Notes: generated by a model from the letters alone, not told the origin. DNA of 64,000 bases from Candidatus Magasanikiibacteriota bacterium (GCA_026396515.1 JAPLWQ010000005.1:8011-72010); one strand, 5' to 3'. Positions 16,295 through 44,138 are shown, counted from the first letter of the stretch. Program-made: numbers and translations.

Positions 16295-16299
16295 TTATG

Positions 16300-16402
16300 C
16301 CCCGTAGAGAAATTTTTAATGATTTTTGGGGAGTTAAAAAATTGATAAAAAAATGATTGTATATTTATTTGATATAGAATAATTCAAAATTCTTCTACGG
16401 GG
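16300..16402. repeat. Empty (ORF-less) copy of the inverted-repeat unit that flanks the GIY-YIG gene at 41832-42139
   Basis: IR-L ccccgtagagaaattttt (16300-16317) and IR-R ttcaaaattcttctacgggg (16383-16402) enclose 65 bp of AT-rich DNA. Both copies share the same GAGAAA versus GAAGAA asymmetry between their arms. Confidence 0.6.
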
Positions 16403-16403
16403 T

Positions 16404-17843
16404 ATGCATAAAAGTACAAAAATCGTGGCCACTCTCGGCCCGGCATCAGAGTCGTATGGAAAAATTAAAGCGATGATAAAAGCGGGTGTAAATGTCGCCC
16501 GCCTTAATTTTTCGCACGGCTCATATGAAAATCATGCGTCGCTGATACGCAATATCCGGCGTGCGGAAAAAGAGCTCGGCGTACCGGTGGGTATTATGCA
16601 AGATATTCAGGGCCCGAAGATTCGGCTGGGTGATATGCCGGCAGCTGGCGTAGCGGTGAAAACCGGCCAGGAGGCCGTTATTAATACGACCCTGAATAAT
16701 TACACAGGCAATGATATACCGTTGTATTTTCCCAGTCTGGAAAAATATGTTAAAGCCGGAGACCGTCTGCTCATTGATGATGGTCATGCTGAATTTAAAA
16801 TAAAAAAGGTGGCCGGTTGCAGGATTGTCTGCAAAGTGGTGGAAGGTTATCTGTTAAAGAGCCATAAAGGCGTGAATTTTCCGGATAGCTATTTAAAAAT
16901 TCCAATAATGAGCGATAAAGACCGCAAGGATTTGCGTTTTGGAATAAAAATGAATGTTGATATTATCGCTTTGTCTTTTGTGCATACGGCTCAGGATATT
17001 AAGAAAGCCAGAGTATTGATAAGAAAGTATCAGAAAGAATCAAAAATTAAATCGCCGCCCCCTGTTTTTATTGTGGCAAAAATTGAACGCAATGAGGCGG
17101 TAAAAAATATTGATGAGATATTAAAAGAAGCTGATGGCGTAATGGTGGCGAGAGGGGATTTGGCGATGGAGACAGCGATGTCAGGAATGCCGTTATTGCA
17201 GAAAATGATAATTGAAAAAGCCAATCATCTGGTAAAGCCGGTTATTGTTGCCACCCAAATGCTTGATTCAATGCAGACAAGCCGCCGTCCAACCAGAGCG
17301 GAAATCACCGATGTGGCCAATGCGGTGATTGATCACGCTGATGCTTTGATGCTTTCCAATGAAACAGCTACCGGCAAATATCCGGTGGAAGCGGTGAAAA
17401 CAATGTCGGAAATTATTTTAACCACTGAAGAGTCAAAATACGATGATATTGATCCGTTCAAAGAGATGCACCCGCACAAATCAATCAGCAAGGCGATCGC
17501 CGGGTTATCCGGCGTGGTGGCCATGCAAGTTGGGGCGAAAGCCATTTTAGTGGCTTCGGCGACCGGCGCCACCGGCCGGCTGGTTAGCCGTGTCAGGCCG
17601 CAGTACCCGGTTTATGTAGGGGTAAAGTCAGTTGTTGCCGGCCGTCAGCTTTGTCTTTCATGGGGGTTGCGCCCATTTCTTTTAACTGCCAAACACACAG
17701 TTGAAGATTTGGTGTCCGCTTTTCTTGCGTATGTTAAGAAAACTAAATTGGTAAAAAAAGGGGATAAAATTGTTTTGATTACCGGCGAGCCGGTAGGCAA
17801 ATCGGGAAGCACCAACATGCTCGAAGTGAAGGAAGTAAAATAA
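16404..17843 (+). CDS. pyk: Pyruvate kinase
   Basis: The N-terminus reads KIVATLGPASESYGKIKAMIKAGVNVARLNFSHG. The ORF is 479 aa. Confidence 0.95.
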   Translation: MHKSTKIVATLGPASESYGKIKAMIKAGVNVARLNFSHGSYENHASLIRNIRRAEKELGVPVGIMQDIQGPKIRLGDMPAAGVAVKTGQEAVINTTLNNYTGNDIPLYFPSLEKYVKAGDRLLIDDGHAEFKIKKVAGCRIVCKVVEGYLLKSHKGVNFPDSYLKIPIMSDKDRKDLRFGIKMNVDIIALSFVHTAQDIKKARVLIRKYQKESKIKSPPPVFIVAKIERNEAVKNIDEILKEADGVMVARGDLAMETAMSGMPLLQKMIIEKANHLVKPVIVATQMLDSMQTSRRPTRAEITDVANAVIDHADALMLSNETATGKYPVEAVKTMSEIILTTEESKYDDIDPFKEMHPHKSISKAIAGLSGVVAMQVGAKAILVASATGATGRLVSRVRPQYPVYVGVKSVVAGRQLCLSWGLRPFLLTAKHTVEDLVSAFLAYVKKTKLVKKGDKIVLITGEPVGKSGSTNMLEVKEVK

Positions 17844-17868: not shown

Positions 17869-18001
17869 CTAACGCATTTTATTATTCAGCAAGCTTCTCG
17901 CAAACAGCGTCGCCAGCCTTGGGCTGACGCGCTTCGATCTCGACCAGCTCCGAGCGGGTCTGCGATATGTTGCTCAAAGCATGCTGGATAATAAAATTAC
18001 A

Positions 18002-19240: not shown

Positions 19241-21027
19241 AAATCCTTAATCATGTAAGTATTATTTAATTTGTATCCGAGTTTTCGGTAATAATCGCGA
19301 ACGCCAACACCGGAAATTACGGCGATTTTAGAGGCCTTTGATTTGGCGGCCAGTTTCTCCGCTTCCTTAACTAATTTTACGCCCATACCTTTGTGTTGTG
19401 AAGCGCGGGTATTTCTTGCTCCAATTTTGAGCATTTGGCCGTAGGTATGAAGTTCGCGGATAAAGGCCTGACGAGTGTCATTGCGAGCGAAGCGAAGCAA
19501 TCCCGCGGTTTTCTGAACTGACAAGAGATTGCTTCGTCGGCCTTCGACCTCCTCGCAATGACAAATCCTCAAACGGCAAAAAGCGTAAGCTACCTGTCGC
19601 TTGGCGTCTTCATAACTTAAAAAATATTCCGTGCCGCCGGAGGCCTGGTATTTATCGACAAAAAGCTTTGGCCGGCCGAGATTGCCGCGTCGTCGCTCTA
19701 CTCCTCCTCGCAATGACAATGGAGAAGCGTGACCCACTTCGCGGCAGCGTAGACAATTGCAGCGCAAATTGCGGCGTTTCATTTCTGCTTGGATCACTTG
19801 GCGCAAATTGGTTACGCGATTGCCGGCAATGATGTGATGACCCGGAATATCCCGAATAAGGCGCGATATCCGAACGTAGCGGGGAACAGTAGTTTTAAAA
19901 TTTATCAGGAGTTCAACTAATTTTTTATCGCTATAGGGTTTAAATTTTCCGGATTTAACCCATTTGAAAAGAGGAGATTTTTTTACCACTGTGCAAGGAT
20001 AAATTTTTATCATATCCGGTCGATATGACGGATTAGAAAAAATTTTCGTAAGCATTTGTGCGTCTTTGGCCGGTGTTGCGCCGGGCAGCTGCGGCATTAG
20101 ATGATAATCAACCTTAAAGCCGTAATTTTTTAAAAGCTCGGTGGCGCGTTTTGTCTCCGCCGTATCGTGCCCGCGCCTTATAATTTTTAAAATTTTGTCA
20201 TCTGTTGTTTGCACACCCAGTTCAATTCTGGTACAGCCAAGTTCGCGCATCGTAAGAATATTTTTTTCGGTGATATGGTCGGGACGCGTTTCCAGAGTCA
20301 CGCCGATAATTCGGTGTTTTGCAATTTCATTTTTCTTTTGGGCCAAATATAATTGATGTTGAAGTTTTTTTAGTGTGTCATGCTGAACTTGTTTCAGCAT
20401 TTTGACGTGGTTGGTGATAGATCCTGAAACAAGTTCAGGATGACTTTTTGAATTGTTTGCCGCTTCAAAACATCGCAAGATAAACCAATACTGATAGGCG
20501 AGGGGATAGGCATTCCAAGTTCCCCCTTTGACAATTAATTCAATTTTGTCGGTCGGGTGGCCGTTGCTAGTTAAAGTTTTTATGCGCTCGCATACTTGCC
20601 GGTGCGGATCAAATTGCAGTGACAGAGCACGTGCAGCCGCCGGTTCGTCGCTGATATAACTTTTTGGCATCTCGGGTTCATCCGGACAATAAATACATTG
20701 CCCCGGGCATTTGTATGGTTTGGTCAAAACAGTAATAATCGCTACGCCGGACATTGTTCGCACGGCGCGCTTGGTCAGCAAATATTCCAGAGCCGGAGAT
20801 TTTTTTATCTTGCCTTTCGCGAGCATGGCGTGATATACTCGGAGCAAATCGGTTTTGCGCGACAAATCCTCATGAATTTTTGAACCGCGCATTTCCGAGC
20901 GTAATACAGCCGAAAAATCGTCCGCTGTTTTAGGGATTTTTTTTAGCAGTTTATATATAATTTTTTCGTGTAGATCAGCCATATGGATAAGCGTAAAGCT
21001 CAAGAAATTGTACGTCAAATGAGGCAA
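19222..21027 (-). CDS. Elp3-like radical-SAM plus GNAT enzyme (tRNA wobble-uridine modification family). It carries an in-frame palindromic repeat insertion
   Basis: The radical-SAM cluster [12 protein letters not shown] is followed by a C-terminal GNAT-like block ([37 protein letters not shown]). The start may instead be the ATG at 20982, which lies back-to-back with the ATG of the divergent gene. Confidence 0.75.
19477..19563. repeat. 87-bp nested palindromic element inserted in frame in the Elp3-like CDS, with a partial second copy at 19680-19718
   Basis: The termini tgtcattgcgag and ctcgcaatgaca form a perfect 12-bp inverted repeat. An internal inverted repeat (gaagcaatc / gattgcttc) is nested within. 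The length, 87 bp, equals 29 codons. The 16-nt string cctcctcgcaatgaca recurs at 19548 and 19703. Confidence 0.65.
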
Positions 21028-25919: not shown

Positions 25920-26036
25920 TGAAAACGAATCGGATATTTGTCTTGGACACGGGTCTCCTCGCCTGTGGGCTCGTCACCCTAATGCTCATTCCGGCTATAA
26001 CGCCGGAATTCCGCGATTGTCCAAAACAAAAATCCG
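25920..26036. repeat. MITE-like hairpin element with 29-bp terminal inverted repeats
   Basis: gaaaacgaatcggatatttgtcttggaca (25920-25948) pairs with tgtccaaaacaaaaatccgattcgttttc (26008-26036), matching at 27 of 29 positions. Confidence 0.6.
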
Positions 26037-26093
26037 ATTCGTTTTCGTATTATTGACTATATAGGAATTAAGTGTTAGAATTGTCAAAATTTT

Positions 26094-26163
26094 GGGTGTT
26101 TAGCTCAGTTGGTTACCCGCCCGAACGACTGACGTCGTTCAGTCGGGCGGGGAGCGACTCGTT
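26094..26163 (+). repeat. Partial duplicate of the tRNA-Val 5' half (acceptor, D-arm and anticodon 5' stem) interrupted by a 36-nt hairpin
   Basis: gggtgtttagctcagttggtta, then a hairpin (cccgcccgaacgactgacgtcgttcagtcgggcggg), then gagcgactcgtt. The flanking strings are identical to nt 1-22 and 23-34 of the intact tRNA at 26405. Confidence 0.7.
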
Positions 26164-26171
26164 ATATACTT

Positions 26172-26414
26172 ATGGAATATTTCGTTTATATTTTAGAAGA
26201 TGAGAGTGGAAAGAAATACAAAGGCATGACAAATGATTTAAATAGACGTTTCCATGAACATCTTCGAGGCAAAACCAAAACAACGAAACGGATGAAGGAT
26301 TTAAGATTGGTCTATTCTGAAGAATTTAACACATTTGAGGAGGCGAGAAAGAGAGAATTATATTTTAAGACAGCCGCAGGTCGTAAATTCATAAAGAAGA
26401 CTTTGGGTGTTTAG
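26172..26414 (+). CDS. GIY-YIG nuclease-domain protein (YhbQ/COG2827-like)
   Basis: 80 aa, reading YFVYILEDESGKKYKGMTNDLNRRFHEH...RE. Its stop codon overlaps the 5' end of tRNA-Val by 10 nt. Confidence 0.75.
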   Translation: MEYFVYILEDESGKKYKGMTNDLNRRFHEHLRGKTKTTKRMKDLRLVYSEEFNTFEEARKRELYFKTAAGRKFIKKTLGV

Positions 26415-26478
26415 CTCAGTTGGTTAGAGCGACTCGTTTACACCGAGTAGGCCAGGGGTTCGAATCCCTTAACACCCA
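26405..26478 (+). tRNA. tRNA-Val (anticodon TAC)
   Basis: A manual cloverleaf fits: acceptor GGGTGTT/AACACCC, D-stem GCTC/GAGC, anticodon stem ACTCG/CGAGT with loop TTTACAC, and a T-loop TTCGAAT. Confidence 0.85.
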
Positions 26479-26480
26479 CA

Positions 26481-31675: not shown

Positions 31676-32011
31676 TTAATTACTCACATTCTTCGGAGCC
31701 GGTTCTATTGGCCTATTTTTGATAGTTTTCGGATTTGGGCTGTAAAGAGGGTTCCGTATGCGCCATCTTTCCACATATTGGCCGATTCCGCGTTCTGCCA
31801 GCTTATTTCTGACCGTAGTATGCCTCTGTGACCACTTGACAAGACTTTCAAAGTTGATTTTATAACGGCCGGCTACCACAGCATAAGTAACTTCCTGATT
31901 AGCAATGGCGCGCCTAACCGTAAGGGAACTAACGCCGAAAAGCTTAGCCGCTTCAGATACTGAAAGCCGGATTAGCTCTTTTTGGGTCTTATTGTCAGTT
32001 TGTTCAACCAT
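31676..32011 (-). CDS. Excisionase/MerR-like helix-turn-helix DNA-binding protein
   Basis: 111 aa containing LSVSEAAKLFGVSSLTVRRAIANQEV (HTH_17-like). Confidence 0.6.
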   Translation of the reverse strand: MVEQTDNKTQKELIRLSVSEAAKLFGVSSLTVRRAIANQEVTYAVVAGRYKINFESLVKWSQRHTTVRNKLAERGIGQYVERWRIRNPLYSPNPKTIKNRPIEPAPKNVSN

Positions 32012-32033
32012 ATTTCTCTTTTGGGCTAAAATT

Positions 32034-32238
32034 TGTGTACGCTAGTGTATACAAATCATAGCAAATAGGTTGGTTTTGTCAAGGGTAGGGGAGAGATAAT
32101 AGAAATTTTTTGGTATTTCATCATATACAGCTATCTGTTTGTGTACGCTAGTGTATACAAAATTTATATAGGTTTGCTAAAATTAGCCATTATTGTTATG
32201 TCGCTTTACATCTATTTTTGTGTACGCTAGCGTACACA
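32034..32238. promoter_or_regulatory. Three 20-bp palindromic operator-like repeats between the divergent HTH gene and the ECF sigma gene
   Basis: tgtgtacgctagtgtataca occurs at 32034 and 32140. tgtgtacgctagcgtacaca at 32219 is a perfect palindrome. Copy 1 lies 23 bp upstream of the HTH start codon. Confidence 0.6.
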
Positions 32239-32485
32239 AAAATATGTCTTGTATTTTTTGATTTATAACGAACGATGGTGCAAATCGAAATCATAATTTA
32301 GAGAGATATTTTAGAAATATTTCTTTATATAATGCACACATCCATTATTTGACACAGGCCCATATGGCTGTTATCATTATATCTATCTCATTCTTGTTTT
32401 GGCCGGTGAAACGGTCATTTTTAATAGAACAAGAAAGACGCCGTTTGCGAAGTGTAACAATTATTAACTTTATTCGTCTACTAAG

Positions 32486-34371: not shown

Positions 34372-34410
34372 CCCTCTCCTTTTTAAGGAGAGGGAAGGGG
34401 TGAGGTAAGG
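34372..34410. terminator. Terminator hairpin plus ggggtgaggtaagg box. It is copy A of a repeated terminator element
   Basis: A ccctctcc-tttttaa-ggagaggg hairpin. The element at 44102-44138 is its reverse complement. Confidence 0.55.
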
Positions 34411-41824: not shown

Positions 41825-41831
41825 GATGAAT

Positions 41832-42139
41832 CCTGTAGAGAAATTTTGAATCGTTATGTTCTACAATTATGTGTTGCAGAGTAAAAAGAATGGTAGTTTG
41901 TATATCGGATTTACGAAGGACTTACGTAAACGACTTGTAGAACACAACGAAGGATTAAATTTTTCTACAAAACGCTATCGTCCGTGGCAACTTATATATT
42001 TTGAAGCATGTGTTGAACAATCAGACGCAGTGAGAAGAGAGGGGTATCTCAAAACAACCCAAGGCGGCAGATTGCTTAAGCGCAGGTTAAAAGATTATAT
42101 TTATAAACAGAAAAATTTAATTCAAAATTCTTCTACAGG
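41832..42139 (+). mobile_element. Inverted-repeat-bounded unit carrying a GIY-YIG nuclease gene
   Basis: IR-L cctgtagagaaattttgaa (41832-41850) matches the reverse complement of IR-R ttcaaaattcttctacagg (42121-42139) at 17 of 19 positions. The unit encloses only the GIY-YIG ORF. An empty copy lies at 16300-16402. Confidence 0.6.
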
Positions 42140-42143
42140 ATGA
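41856..42143 (+). CDS. GIY-YIG nuclease-domain protein (YhbQ/COG2827-like), paralogous to 26172..26414
   Basis: 95 aa, reading YNYVLQSKKNGSLYIGFTKDLRKRLVEHNEG...RRE. Its C-terminus and stop lie inside IR-R. Confidence 0.75.
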   Translation: MFYNYVLQSKKNGSLYIGFTKDLRKRLVEHNEGLNFSTKRYRPWQLIYFEACVEQSDAVRREGYLKTTQGGRLLKRRLKDYIYKQKNLIQNSSTG

Positions 42144-42281
42144 AGAACTATTCATCCAACAGAGCGCAAAAGGGAAAGACGGCTTACCGCACGCCGAGCT
42201 TGTTTAAGGCAAATAAAAGTATTAATTATGCGGATATAAAAAGCCGGGTTAAGAGCGACCGTTGGACTAAAAAGAATAATA

Positions 42282-42977
42282 ATGATTATGCCAAATAAAA
42301 TTATTGTACTTTCGCTTGGCGGATCTCTTATTATTCCTAAAACCGGATTTGATTTGAAGTTCCTCAAGGGTTTCAAACAGATGATTTCGGTTTTCATTAA
42401 AAAAGGAATGAGGTTTGTGATTGTCTGCGGCGGGGGAGCGACTTGTCGGCAGTATCAGGCAGCGGCCAAAGGCGTGGGCAAGATGACGGCAAAGGACTTG
42501 GATTTAATCGGCATTAAGACCACTCGATTCAACGCCTTTTTTATTAAAACAATTTTTGGCAAACTGGCGCATCCCGAACTGACCAAAGCGCCGGAACAGA
42601 AATACAATTGGAAAGAAAAAATATTGGTCGGTGCTGGTTGGGACCCGGGCTGGTCGAGTGATTATGATGCAGTGGCCTTGGCCAAAACCTACGGGGCGAA
42701 AACGGTGATAAATCTTTCCAATATTGAATACGTTTATGACAGTGACCCGCGGAAACATCCCAAAGCGAAAAAGCTGGTGAATATTTCCTGGAAAGATTTC
42801 AGAAAAATTGTGGGTAATAAATGGGTGCCGGGCGCCAATTTGCCGTTTGATCCGATTGCGAGCCGACTTGCCGATAAAAATAACATAAAAGTGATTGTGA
42901 TGAATGGGGCGAACTTGCCGGAAGTGAAGAAGGCGATTGAGGGGAAGAAATTCAGGGGGACAACAATAGGGGGTTGA
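42282..42977 (+). CDS. pyrH: UMP kinase (archaeal-type PyrH, amino-acid-kinase fold)
   Basis: 231 aa with IIVLSLGGSLI and VIVCGGGATCRQY...DLIGIKTTRFNA. Confidence 0.65.
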   Translation: MIMPNKIIVLSLGGSLIIPKTGFDLKFLKGFKQMISVFIKKGMRFVIVCGGGATCRQYQAAAKGVGKMTAKDLDLIGIKTTRFNAFFIKTIFGKLAHPELTKAPEQKYNWKEKILVGAGWDPGWSSDYDAVALAKTYGAKTVINLSNIEYVYDSDPRKHPKAKKLVNISWKDFRKIVGNKWVPGANLPFDPIASRLADKNNIKVIVMNGANLPEVKKAIEGKKFRGTTIGG

Positions 42978-43161
42978 CACCGGTTCCGGTATTTGATATT
43001 ATCTAGCAAGCCATAGACAGCAGGCGCCCTTACGGGCTTAATCTCCTGCCGAGGCAATCTTACCCGCAAAAATGCGGTTTTCAGGTCGAAGATTGTTAAA
43101 TGTCTGTGGTTTAAAGCCACAGTTTTATTTTTTAAATAAATTGCGGCTGTAAACCATTATT
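42974..43161 (+). promoter_or_regulatory. rplJ promoter (TTGACA-18-TATTAT) and L10 leader region
   Basis: TTGACA at 42974-42979 overlaps the pyrH stop codon. TATTAT lies at 42998-43003. The ~150-nt leader carries a hairpin (ctgtggtttaaagccacag) and is known to be bound autogenously by L10(L12)n. Confidence 0.55.
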
Positions 43162-44101: not shown

Positions 44102-44138
44102 TTACCTCACCCCAGCCCTCTCCTTGGTAAGGAGAGGG
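44102..44138. terminator. Terminator hairpin plus ttacctcacccc box. It is copy B of the repeated terminator element, in reverse orientation to copy A
   Basis: A ccctctcc-ttggtaa-ggagaggg hairpin. A second hairpin at 44145-44170 terminates cysS. The element is the reverse complement of 34372-34410. Confidence 0.55.

Follow-up and report, generated by a model that had tools for sequence, protein, structure and literature searches.

A stretch of 64,000 nucleotides from a Candidatus Magasanikiibacteriota bacterium (GCA_026396515.1, JAPLWQ010000005.1:8011-72010), analysed here over its whole length and called the window, carries two copies of one hairpin-bounded element, copy A with a small gene for a GIY-YIG nuclease between its arms and copy B without a gene and directly in front of pyk. 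Both probably belong to a single family of small mobile elements, copy A as its autonomous type and copy B as a gene-less form; the family is widespread in Patescibacteria (the candidate phyla radiation, CPR), and the nuclease would drive its movement. The element was inserted as a unit that has inverted ends, is flanked by 4-bp duplications and exists with and without the gene, the arms of the two forms being cognate. A first-pass annotation of the window had already proposed a small mobile unit in these two forms, and the duplications, the polymorphic insertions and the widespread occurrence of the arms all support that proposal. Full-text literature searches found no earlier description of this CPR family of hairpin-bounded GIY-YIG elements, which apparently has gone undescribed so far.

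The starting point was a pair of imperfect inverted repeats of about 19 bp that the first-pass annotation had reported around the second GIY-YIG open reading frame (ORF) of the window and, with no gene between them, just before pyk. Both pairs were present where they had been placed, each arm proving to be one base longer on its outer side, 20 nt in all (Table 1). When the window was searched with the 19-mer CCTGTAGAGAAATTTTGAA, allowing up to three mismatches, exactly four matches were returned, at 16301-16319(+), 16383-16401(-), 41832-41850(+) and 42121-42139(-), compared with a mean of 0.03 matches in the shuffled window, and none of 100 shuffles reached four. By our own count the arms are complementary at 18 of 20 positions in copy A and at 17 of 20 in copy B, and 19 nt of the right arm of copy B, TAATTCAAAATTCTTCTAC, are identical in copy A. 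The stem formed by the two arms closes the predicted RNA fold of copy A (z = -3.8) and the single-strand DNA fold of copy B (z = -4.8), the interior of the latter being 63 nt of AT-rich DNA. Chance and a shared operator were both ruled out as the origin of the repeats, by the shuffles and by relatives that lack the inserts.

Table 1. Coordinates in the window of the two element copies and of the features directly associated with them.
Feature	Position	Strand	Details
Copy A, full (gene-containing) element, TCCTGTAG...CTACAGGA	41831-42140	+	310 nt; hairpin scan and RNA fold
Copy A left arm, TCCTGTAGAGAAATTTTGAA	41831-41850	+	20 nt; sequence and arm alignment
Copy A right arm, TTCAAAATTCTTCTACAGGA	42121-42140	+	20 nt; final A is the A of the downstream ATG
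Copy A target-site duplication, left, TGAA	41827-41830	+	identical to 42141-42144
Copy A target-site duplication, right, TGAA	42141-42144	+	
Single-domain GIY-YIG nuclease ORF, 95 aa	41856-42143	+	Pfam PF01541, E=4e-17
Downstream 52-aa ORF, start codon abutting copy A	42140-42298	+	kept in relatives without the element
Copy B, gene-less (non-autonomous) element, CCCCGTAG...CTACGGGG	16300-16402	+	103 nt; hairpin scan and DNA fold
Copy B left arm, CCCCGTAGAGAAATTTTTAA	16300-16319	+	20 nt
Copy B right arm, TTCAAAATTCTTCTACGGGG	16383-16402	+	20 nt
Copy B target-site duplication, left, TATG	16296-16299	+	
Copy B target-site duplication, right, TATG	16403-16406	+	holds the pyk start codon, 16404-16406

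Both copies fit closely into the genes around them. The nuclease ORF of copy A begins 5 nt past the left arm, and the right arm lies inside its 3' end and encodes the final seven codons, IQNSSTG; most homologues of the protein are 88 aa long. The TGA stop of the nuclease overlaps the ATG of the next ORF (ATGA), an ATG that is rebuilt from the terminal A of the element and the TG of the duplication, while the left TGAA together with the A that precedes it (ATGAA) is the former start codon region of the same 52-aa ORF. A 5-bp ATGNA duplication around an asymmetric element was also considered for copy A and dropped, as symmetric T...A termini with a 4-bp duplication fit the loci L030 and L068 too. 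Copy B ends directly before the T of TATG, the last three bases of which are the start of pyk, encoding pyruvate kinase (Pfam PK E=4e-109). No promoter-like site was predicted on the plus strand of the gene-less copy and no terminator-like site inside either window element, which ruled out a promoter or terminator carried by the gene-less copy.

The insertions are polymorphic at both sites. In L103, the closest relative, with a pyk gene 89% identical and the synteny preserved, the pyk site reads TAAttATG with no insert, in the context ...aatTAAttATGATGCAC, and in a further relative (L106; 77%) it reads TAAaaggaggtATG, with the element likewise absent. The site of copy A is empty in L107, whose UMP kinase is 93% identical and whose 52-aa ORF is near-identical; no GIY-YIG element stands upstream of that ORF, the order there being a holin-like gene, an unrelated spacer of 58 nt and then the ORF start ATGAAGAAC. 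Another relative with a pyk gene 77% identical (L104, 9795-10000) carries another, different insert, about 200 nt long, at precisely the TATG that copy B occupies in front of pyk, with imperfect inverted repeats CCGCGTTATATAACTTCCAG ... CTGAAAGTTGATATACGGGG at its ends and TATG on both sides, which suggests a second, related type of hairpin element or a recurrent hot spot.

Target-site duplications, which the first-pass annotation had recommended looking for along with presence and absence at the pyk site, were found at both window copies and throughout the family. The boundary of an element was set 4 nt outward of its GTAG and CTAC. In a first set, 49 of the 70 elements (70%) had exact direct repeats of 4 nt or more at this boundary (46 of 4 nt and three of 5 nt), as against 12% in a control in which left and right flanks were paired across different loci. 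An independent metagenome set gave a direct repeat of at least 4 bp at 66% of 144 elements against 3.8% in the control, and the modal duplication length was 4 bp. The duplicated sequences vary (TATG, TGAA, TGGA, TGCA, TGTA, TTGA, TAAA, CTTG and others) and are therefore derived from the target, with sub-family preferences. Spread by template switching through microhomology in the flanks was entertained, given that duplications correlate with sub-family, and was rejected because the third base of TGNA varies within one sub-family, which argues for duplications derived from the target.

Tandem elements that share one 4-bp repeat were seen at L036 (10250-10400), L046 (6340-6447), L088 (10270-10330), L058 and L097, for example as ...CTACGGGG TTGA CCCTGTAG... 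followed by TTGA again, and some left arms at these loci have no partner arm nearby. Such tandem and unpaired arms are consistent with re-insertion at a regenerated target and decay of older copies.

Beyond the window, 339 homologues of the copy A protein were found, the best of them 66-78% identical, in many lineages of Patescibacteria that include Nomurabacteria, Paceibacterota, Zambryskibacteria and Minisyncoccia, and a scan of representative genomes gave at least 576 genomic relatives. The gene contexts are unrelated among lineages (TIM|GIY|PGK, ABC ATPase|GIY|BipA, RuvX|GIY|tRNA-binding protein), and arms of this kind lie on both sides of the homologous gene in nearly all loci, across dozens of CPR lineages, so that the search for the arm in related genomes, another of the checks proposed at the outset, returned the same architecture time and again. 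The geometry recurs as well: about 5 nt separate the end of the left arm from the ATG, and the right arm lies just past or inside the 3' end of the ORF, the latter arrangement being why some homologues end in ...NSSTG or ...NFTTG. A scan of the homologue loci for GTAG...CTAC stems gave 84 elements in two size classes, about 50 of roughly 300 nt with the gene and about 32 of 50-150 nt without it, which supplied the count of full and empty copies that had been called for. Short gene-less forms were also abundant in metagenomes, where a pattern search of Joint Genome Institute (JGI) data gave at least 120 loci, with 145 elements in the hairpin scan. The consensus stem of about 20 bp is (T/C)CNNGTAG-WRR-AWTT... 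paired with ...AAWT-YYW-CTACNN(G/A), and it encloses either a gene for a single-domain GIY-YIG protein of 85-98 aa, the element then measuring about 300 nt, or a non-coding stretch of 10-100 nt.

The 1.95 Mb of loci scanned held no longer, insertion-sequence-sized element bounded by GTAG-type arms and no gene inside such arms other than GIY-YIG. A larger parent insertion sequence with a conventional transposase was thus not found, the long-range arm pairs being cross-pairings between separate elements. A phage origin was set aside, as only two distant relatives (46% and 38% identity) were present among 2.9 million viral contigs, and searches of PHROG and PADLOC gave no match. The window protein is identical to one annotated in a metagenome-assembled genome of Candidatus Magasanikbacteria, and an exact-sequence look-up of it returned the source organism only and thus gave no sign of very recent spread of copy A.

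Gene-less copies come in two shapes (L061, L086, L076, L082, L054, L071, L039, L051, L035). The short one, of 60-95 nt, has the outer stem and one or two small GC-rich internal hairpins; the longer one, of about 130-145 nt, has one small hairpin beside one arm and then about 80 nt of AT-rich DNA. Copy B of the window resembles the longer shape.

The arms and the gene are linked in sequence as well. Gene-less arms matched those of the gene-containing copy at the same locus with an identity of 0.83, compared with 0.70 for other loci, a value not equalled in any of 5000 permutations. One metagenome-assembled genome (MAG) holds two gene-containing copies at different sites (L038 and L051), and between their ORFs, whose nucleotide identity is 80%, 28 codons differ synonymously and 13 non-synonymously, while the arms and the bases adjacent to them are 100% identical and the similarity stops exactly at the predicted ends. 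The comparison indicates that the nuclease is under purifying selection and that the ends are under stronger constraint than the gene.

The structure of the stem was examined in an alignment of the two arms from 64 distinct elements. The element's first 20 positions pair with its last 20, and compensatory changes occurred in 15 of the 22 stem pairs tested. Paired cells amounted to 89%, compared with 73% on shuffling and no more than 49% on sliding the register, a percentage that is partly built in by a hairpin scan selecting for complementarity; the flank statistics, the compensatory changes and the fixed mismatch described next are unaffected by that selection. Stem positions 10-11 are never both Watson-Crick, every element having one G·U(T) and one A·C there, and the arm that carries the one or the other, relative to the ORF, is variable. 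The asymmetry of GAGAAA versus GAAGAA between the arms, to which the first-pass annotation had drawn attention in both window copies, is indeed common to the two and is a rare variant of this family-wide tandem mismatch (AGA/AAG centre; 5 of 69 elements). Arms that covary, together with a fixed G·T/A·C in either orientation, argue that the intra-strand hairpin or cruciform is a selected form, and not only two protein-binding ends, and they point to a folded single strand or a cruciform as a functional form of the element. A known RNA family was ruled out as an explanation of the stems, as no Rfam family matched within the elements, and the window as a whole shows only two tRNAs and a ribosomal protein L10 leader. 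The leader (42993-43138; Rfam RF00557, 63.7 bits) precedes the L10/L12 genes, just downstream of the UMP kinase gene beside copy A.

The Pfam GIY-YIG domain covers residues 2-69 of the 95-aa copy A protein, in which no other domain was found, and an alignment of homologues shows invariant residues that include Y3, Y5, Y16, G18, R26, E29, H30, N35 and E62. The AlphaFold model (predicted local distance difference test, pLDDT, 85) has the GIY-YIG core and one long basic C-terminal helix, its best structural matches being UPF0213 proteins, Slx1 and the I-TevI catalytic domain. The sequence is highly conserved, with about 70% identity across CPR classes. Comparison was made with Ssn proteins, single-domain GIY-YIG nucleases of 94 aa that cut only single-stranded DNA, site-specifically beside a hairpin repeat, NTS/SRM, and do not act on double-stranded DNA or RNA (Chenal et al. 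2025, Nat Commun, PMC11893778), using the Neisseria gonorrhoeae SsnA orthologue with the NTS copies around it (L102, from a chromosome mislabelled as a plasmid). The window protein is 40% identical to this orthologue over 63 of 94 residues (67% coverage, 45 bits), with an hhalign probability of 97%; the published membership criterion for Ssn is a blastp match to N. meningitidis SsnA at E<1e-10 with at least 75% coverage, more than this alignment has, or cd10448 as the top CDD hit (PMC11893778). A profile of the CPR family scored Ssn-type proteins at 39-45 bits, UPF0213 (YhbQ-type) proteins at 27-30 and Slx1 at 22, which makes "Ssn-like" a more apt label than the "YhbQ-like" used in the first-pass annotation, and the NCBIfam group I intron endonuclease model gave 21 bits against a cut-off of 56. 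Judged by these scores, Ssn is the nearest characterised family, and the CPR proteins appear to form a group of their own.

An ATG opening an ORF of at least 60 codons lay within one base of the right end in 32 of 45 gene-containing elements and in eight of 24 nearby gene-less elements, compared with 3% at random positions; copy A itself abuts an ORF of 52 codons and falls below this threshold. No gene-containing element had such a start on its left side, and the nuclease gene is thus co-oriented with the gene that it abuts, whose start codon the duplication or the final A of the element preserves. Among short gene-less metagenome copies the association was weaker though still evident, 10% abutting a start codon against 1.6%. 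This placement may reflect both a target preference (TATG, TGNA) and the survival, in compact operons, of those insertions that spare the downstream start.

A mechanism can be sketched from these features. The nuclease would recognise the folded stem and cut at its base, as Ssn does beside hairpins; it would mobilise its own copy and, in trans, the gene-less copies; and host repair and ligation would complete the insertion. In the compact operons of CPR bacteria copies that leave the start codon downstream intact would be the ones to survive, and they would be co-transcribed and translationally coupled to the gene that follows, as the ATGA overlap of copy A suggests. Taken to its full extent, the proposal would be a new class of prokaryotic transposon, with a single-domain GIY-YIG transposase of about 90 aa that recognises the ends of its own element as a hairpin or cruciform marked by the tandem G·T/A·C mismatch, cuts at the base of the stem, generates a 4-bp duplication and prefers start codons; this we put forward tentatively, as a possibility somewhat less likely than not.

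Several observations weigh against nuclease-driven mobility. The association of protein and arms is purely genomic, and the pairing within the stems owes something to the way in which the elements were selected. GIY-YIG enzymes are hydrolytic nucleases that are not known to carry out strand transfer, and integration would therefore need other factors. Ssn proteins cut only single-stranded DNA, and a 4-bp duplication is most simply a sign of a staggered cut in a duplex target. Nor is there any sign of very recent movement: across many samples each protein cluster examined keeps to one context, and divergence between the two copies that share a MAG already stands at 20%. The copy number in the window is low, at two in 64 kb.

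One alternative is that the elements are hairpins, akin to miniature inverted-repeat transposable elements (MITEs), that a conventional transposase (DDE or similar) encoded elsewhere moves in trans, with the GIY-YIG gene a passenger or an independent selfish gene that settled in the loop. Terminal inverted repeats with a fixed 4-bp duplication are a classical DDE signature, and GIY-YIG nucleases are not known to have strand-transfer chemistry. We nevertheless hold this explanation to be unlikely, as there are only two size classes and GIY-YIG is the sole enclosed gene in the 1.95 Mb of loci, the geometry of ORF and arms is fixed across dozens of lineages, the arms track the co-resident GIY-YIG copy, and a tandem mismatch in either orientation is unexpected for duplex ends bound by one transposase.

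It also seems improbable that the elements are a domesticated, Ssn-like host system, in which hairpins mark incoming or replicating single-stranded DNA for cutting, for example in the control of transformation as in Neisseria, and the appearance of an element is a relic. The protein is homologous to SsnA, and the Ssn study shows hairpin-guided cutting of single-stranded DNA with an effect on transformation and proposes domestication of a unit resembling an insertion sequence (PMC11893778); purifying selection, the identity of about 70% across CPR classes and the stability of each copy in one context across many samples speak for such a system as well. The window, however, has two hairpins per 64 kb where NTS copies run to hundreds per genome, the gene lies inside a single hairpin and not between independent ones, and the arms do not match the SRM motif. 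The duplications and the site polymorphism, moreover, show spread by insertion, which is compatible with domestication yet is not explained by it.

That the stems serve at the RNA level, as processing sites, terminators or translational couplers conserved for expression rather than mobility, is very improbable in spite of the co-orientation of gene-containing copies with flanking genes whose start codons they abut, the overlap of the copy A stop with the next ATG, and a stem that closes the predicted RNA fold and would draw the stop codon upstream and the start codon downstream close to each other, since orthologous junctions in close relatives work without a stem, insertion is shown by the 4-bp duplications and the multitude of unrelated contexts, a start codon lies next to only 10% of the gene-less copies from metagenomes, and no Rfam family, terminator-like or promoter-like signal was found; an RNA role could remain as a secondary property that limits harm.

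If the nuclease were indeed the transposase, then GIY-YIG would be a further catalytic family able to drive DNA transposition. The DNA transposons known so far rely on enzymes of the DDE/RNase-H-like, HUH, serine, tyrosine or Cas1 type, and GIY-YIG nucleases are known only from homing genes and as the endonuclease module of Penelope-like retroelements. At about 300 nt and with one 88-aa protein, the CPR element is a minimal system for studying how a nuclease recognises folded DNA without a DNA-binding domain, and whether it can move DNA. The elements are also a common and unannotated class of CPR repeat that affects gene calling, through duplicated start codons and ORF extensions contributed by the arms, and they bear on how selfish DNA survives in genomes almost without intergenic space.

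Other repeats and repeat-associated genes occur in the window. The first-pass annotation had taken its two GIY-YIG genes as paralogs that each stand beside repeat structures, and repeats do flank both; the other gene (26173-26415, 80 aa, 35% identical to the element nuclease) has a different arrangement, is not bounded by GTAG-type arms and lies outside the element family. It overlaps the 5' end of tRNA-Val (26405-26479) and is preceded by a duplicated 5' half of this tRNA (region 26086-26479), with positions 1-22 at 26093-26114, after which come a GC-rich hairpin of 36 nt, CCCGCCCGAACGACTGACGTCGTTCAGTCGGGCGGG, and GAGCGACTCGTT, which reaches to the anticodon. The arrangement resembles the product of an insertion at the anticodon loop of the tRNA gene that regenerated the 5' half. 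A 24-nt palindrome, TTTGTGTACGCTAGTGTATACAAA, is present in three copies (two identical, one 92%) at 32032-32240, just upstream of a gene for a 111-aa helix-turn-helix protein on the minus strand (31676-32011), and these copies look like operator sites. The 37-nt hairpin-containing sequence CCCTCTCC...GGAGAGGG occurs at 34372-34408 and 44102-44138 in opposite orientation, with 86% complementarity and directly past gene ends (34360 and 44096), and is either a repeated terminator-like hairpin or another small repeat family. Further inverted-repeat pairs lie at 25921-26046, 17876-17997 and 20377-20444, none with GTAG-type arms; two of the three, each closely downstream of a gene, have arms of 28-29 nt (93% and 82% complementary) around an interior of 66-68 nt, and the third has 24-nt arms of the GTCATGCTGAAC type and lies inside an ORF.

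Among known systems, the first-pass annotation had likened the unit to homing endonuclease or IStron cassettes, and the closest counterpart is instead found in the Ssn nuclease and the hairpin repeats that go with it (PMC11893778), REP/RAYT being an analogy. The CPR elements share with the intron-encoded and free-standing GIY-YIG homing endonucleases (I-TevI, T4 Seg proteins) the GIY-YIG catalytic fold and the habit of small selfish genes between conserved genes. The homing enzymes, however, have a separate DNA-binding domain, whereas the CPR protein is the catalytic domain alone, and homing proceeds by break repair into a cognate allele, with neither inverted repeats nor duplications, both of which the CPR element has.

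Terminal inverted repeats, a fixed-length duplication and unoccupied sites are classical traits of insertion sequences and MITEs that the CPR elements display. Their gene-less copies resemble bacterial MITEs (Neisseria Correia, RUP, Nezha) in being 50-150 nt long and intergenic, in having terminal inverted repeats and short duplications, and in folding into hairpins when transcribed. The known MITEs have, or are assigned, an origin in DDE-type insertion sequences; unlike them, the CPR elements have as their only cognate gene-containing form one that encodes a GIY-YIG nuclease, and no transposase of a known class (DDE, HUH, serine, tyrosine) was found inside the arms, where GIY-YIG is the only ORF.

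With IS200/IS605, the single-strand 'peel and paste' insertion sequences, the CPR elements have in common a minimal size, a folded DNA hairpin as the apparently recognised form and an imperfection of the stem as an apparent recognition feature. The imperfect palindromes of IS608 carry an extrahelical base as this imperfection, the CPR counterpart being the conserved tandem G·T/A·C. Members of IS200/IS605, unlike the CPR elements, have a subterminal hairpin at each end, no terminal inverted repeats, no duplication and an HUH enzyme, whereas here a single stem is formed from both ends. The likeness to the REPIN/RAYT system (REP, repetitive extragenic palindromic; RAYT, REP-associated tyrosine transposase) lies in a single protein gene that has a palindromic repeat on its two sides in inverted copies, and in gene-less inverted doublets that form intergenic hairpins and match the flanks of the co-resident gene. 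The RAYTs, by contrast, are HUH/Y1 proteins related to the TnpA of IS200/IS605, while the CPR protein is a GIY-YIG nuclease, and REPINs make no target duplication where the CPR elements make one of 4 bp.

The Ssn system is nearest, with homologous single-domain GIY-YIG proteins of about 90 aa that lack a DNA-binding domain, and with a gene physically tied to hairpin-forming repeats that recur elsewhere in the genome. The two differ in that the CPR gene lies inside one long-range hairpin, with arms about 270 nt apart, whereas the Ssn gene lies between independent hairpins of 20-50 nt, and in the C-terminal third of the protein, which is KTTQGGRLLKRRLK here and KxWxRxxKxxLIxxxNxxWxDL in Ssn. The SRM motif (HGTCWY...RNCYNB) had no match in the whole window and nine in a 3.2-kb Neisseria ssnA control, which ruled out membership of the Ssn repeat type, and the flanks of the copy A gene pair with each other and do not each form a hairpin of their own as SRM does. 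Relatives of the window organism do carry a true Ssn-type GIY-YIG gene (MSSFRKILYIGVTNDLARRVSEHRQELIEGFTKKY...) in the orthologous intergenic region (L111 and L112, from the holin-like gene to UMP kinase; see also L108, 2542-2567). It is surrounded in these relatives by palindromic repeats of the GTCATTGCGAGG/GTCATTCTGA type (GTCATT-type), the published SRM expression being unmatched in L112, and it is a system separate from the GTAG-arm elements; more than one kind of unit made up of a nuclease and repeats seems to gather in this intergenic region.

The NTS/SRM repeat flanks its own ssn gene and recurs hundreds of times, and the authors of the Ssn study described NTS-ssnA-NTS as insertion-sequence-like and compared it with REP/RAYT (PMC11893778). 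The former mobility of the unit was there a matter of speculation only, target duplications were not reported, and neither CPR nor Patescibacteria was mentioned (PMC11893778). The 4-bp duplications, the unoccupied sites and the preference for start codons seen here have no reported equivalent in Ssn. With its simpler architecture, in which the gene sits inside a single hairpin, the CPR family supplies the genomic evidence of mobility that had been missing, in the form of 4-bp duplications, unoccupied sites and gene-less derivatives with matching arms, and, should the nuclease prove to drive this movement, it would suggest that the Ssn hairpin repeats of other bacteria have spread in the same way.

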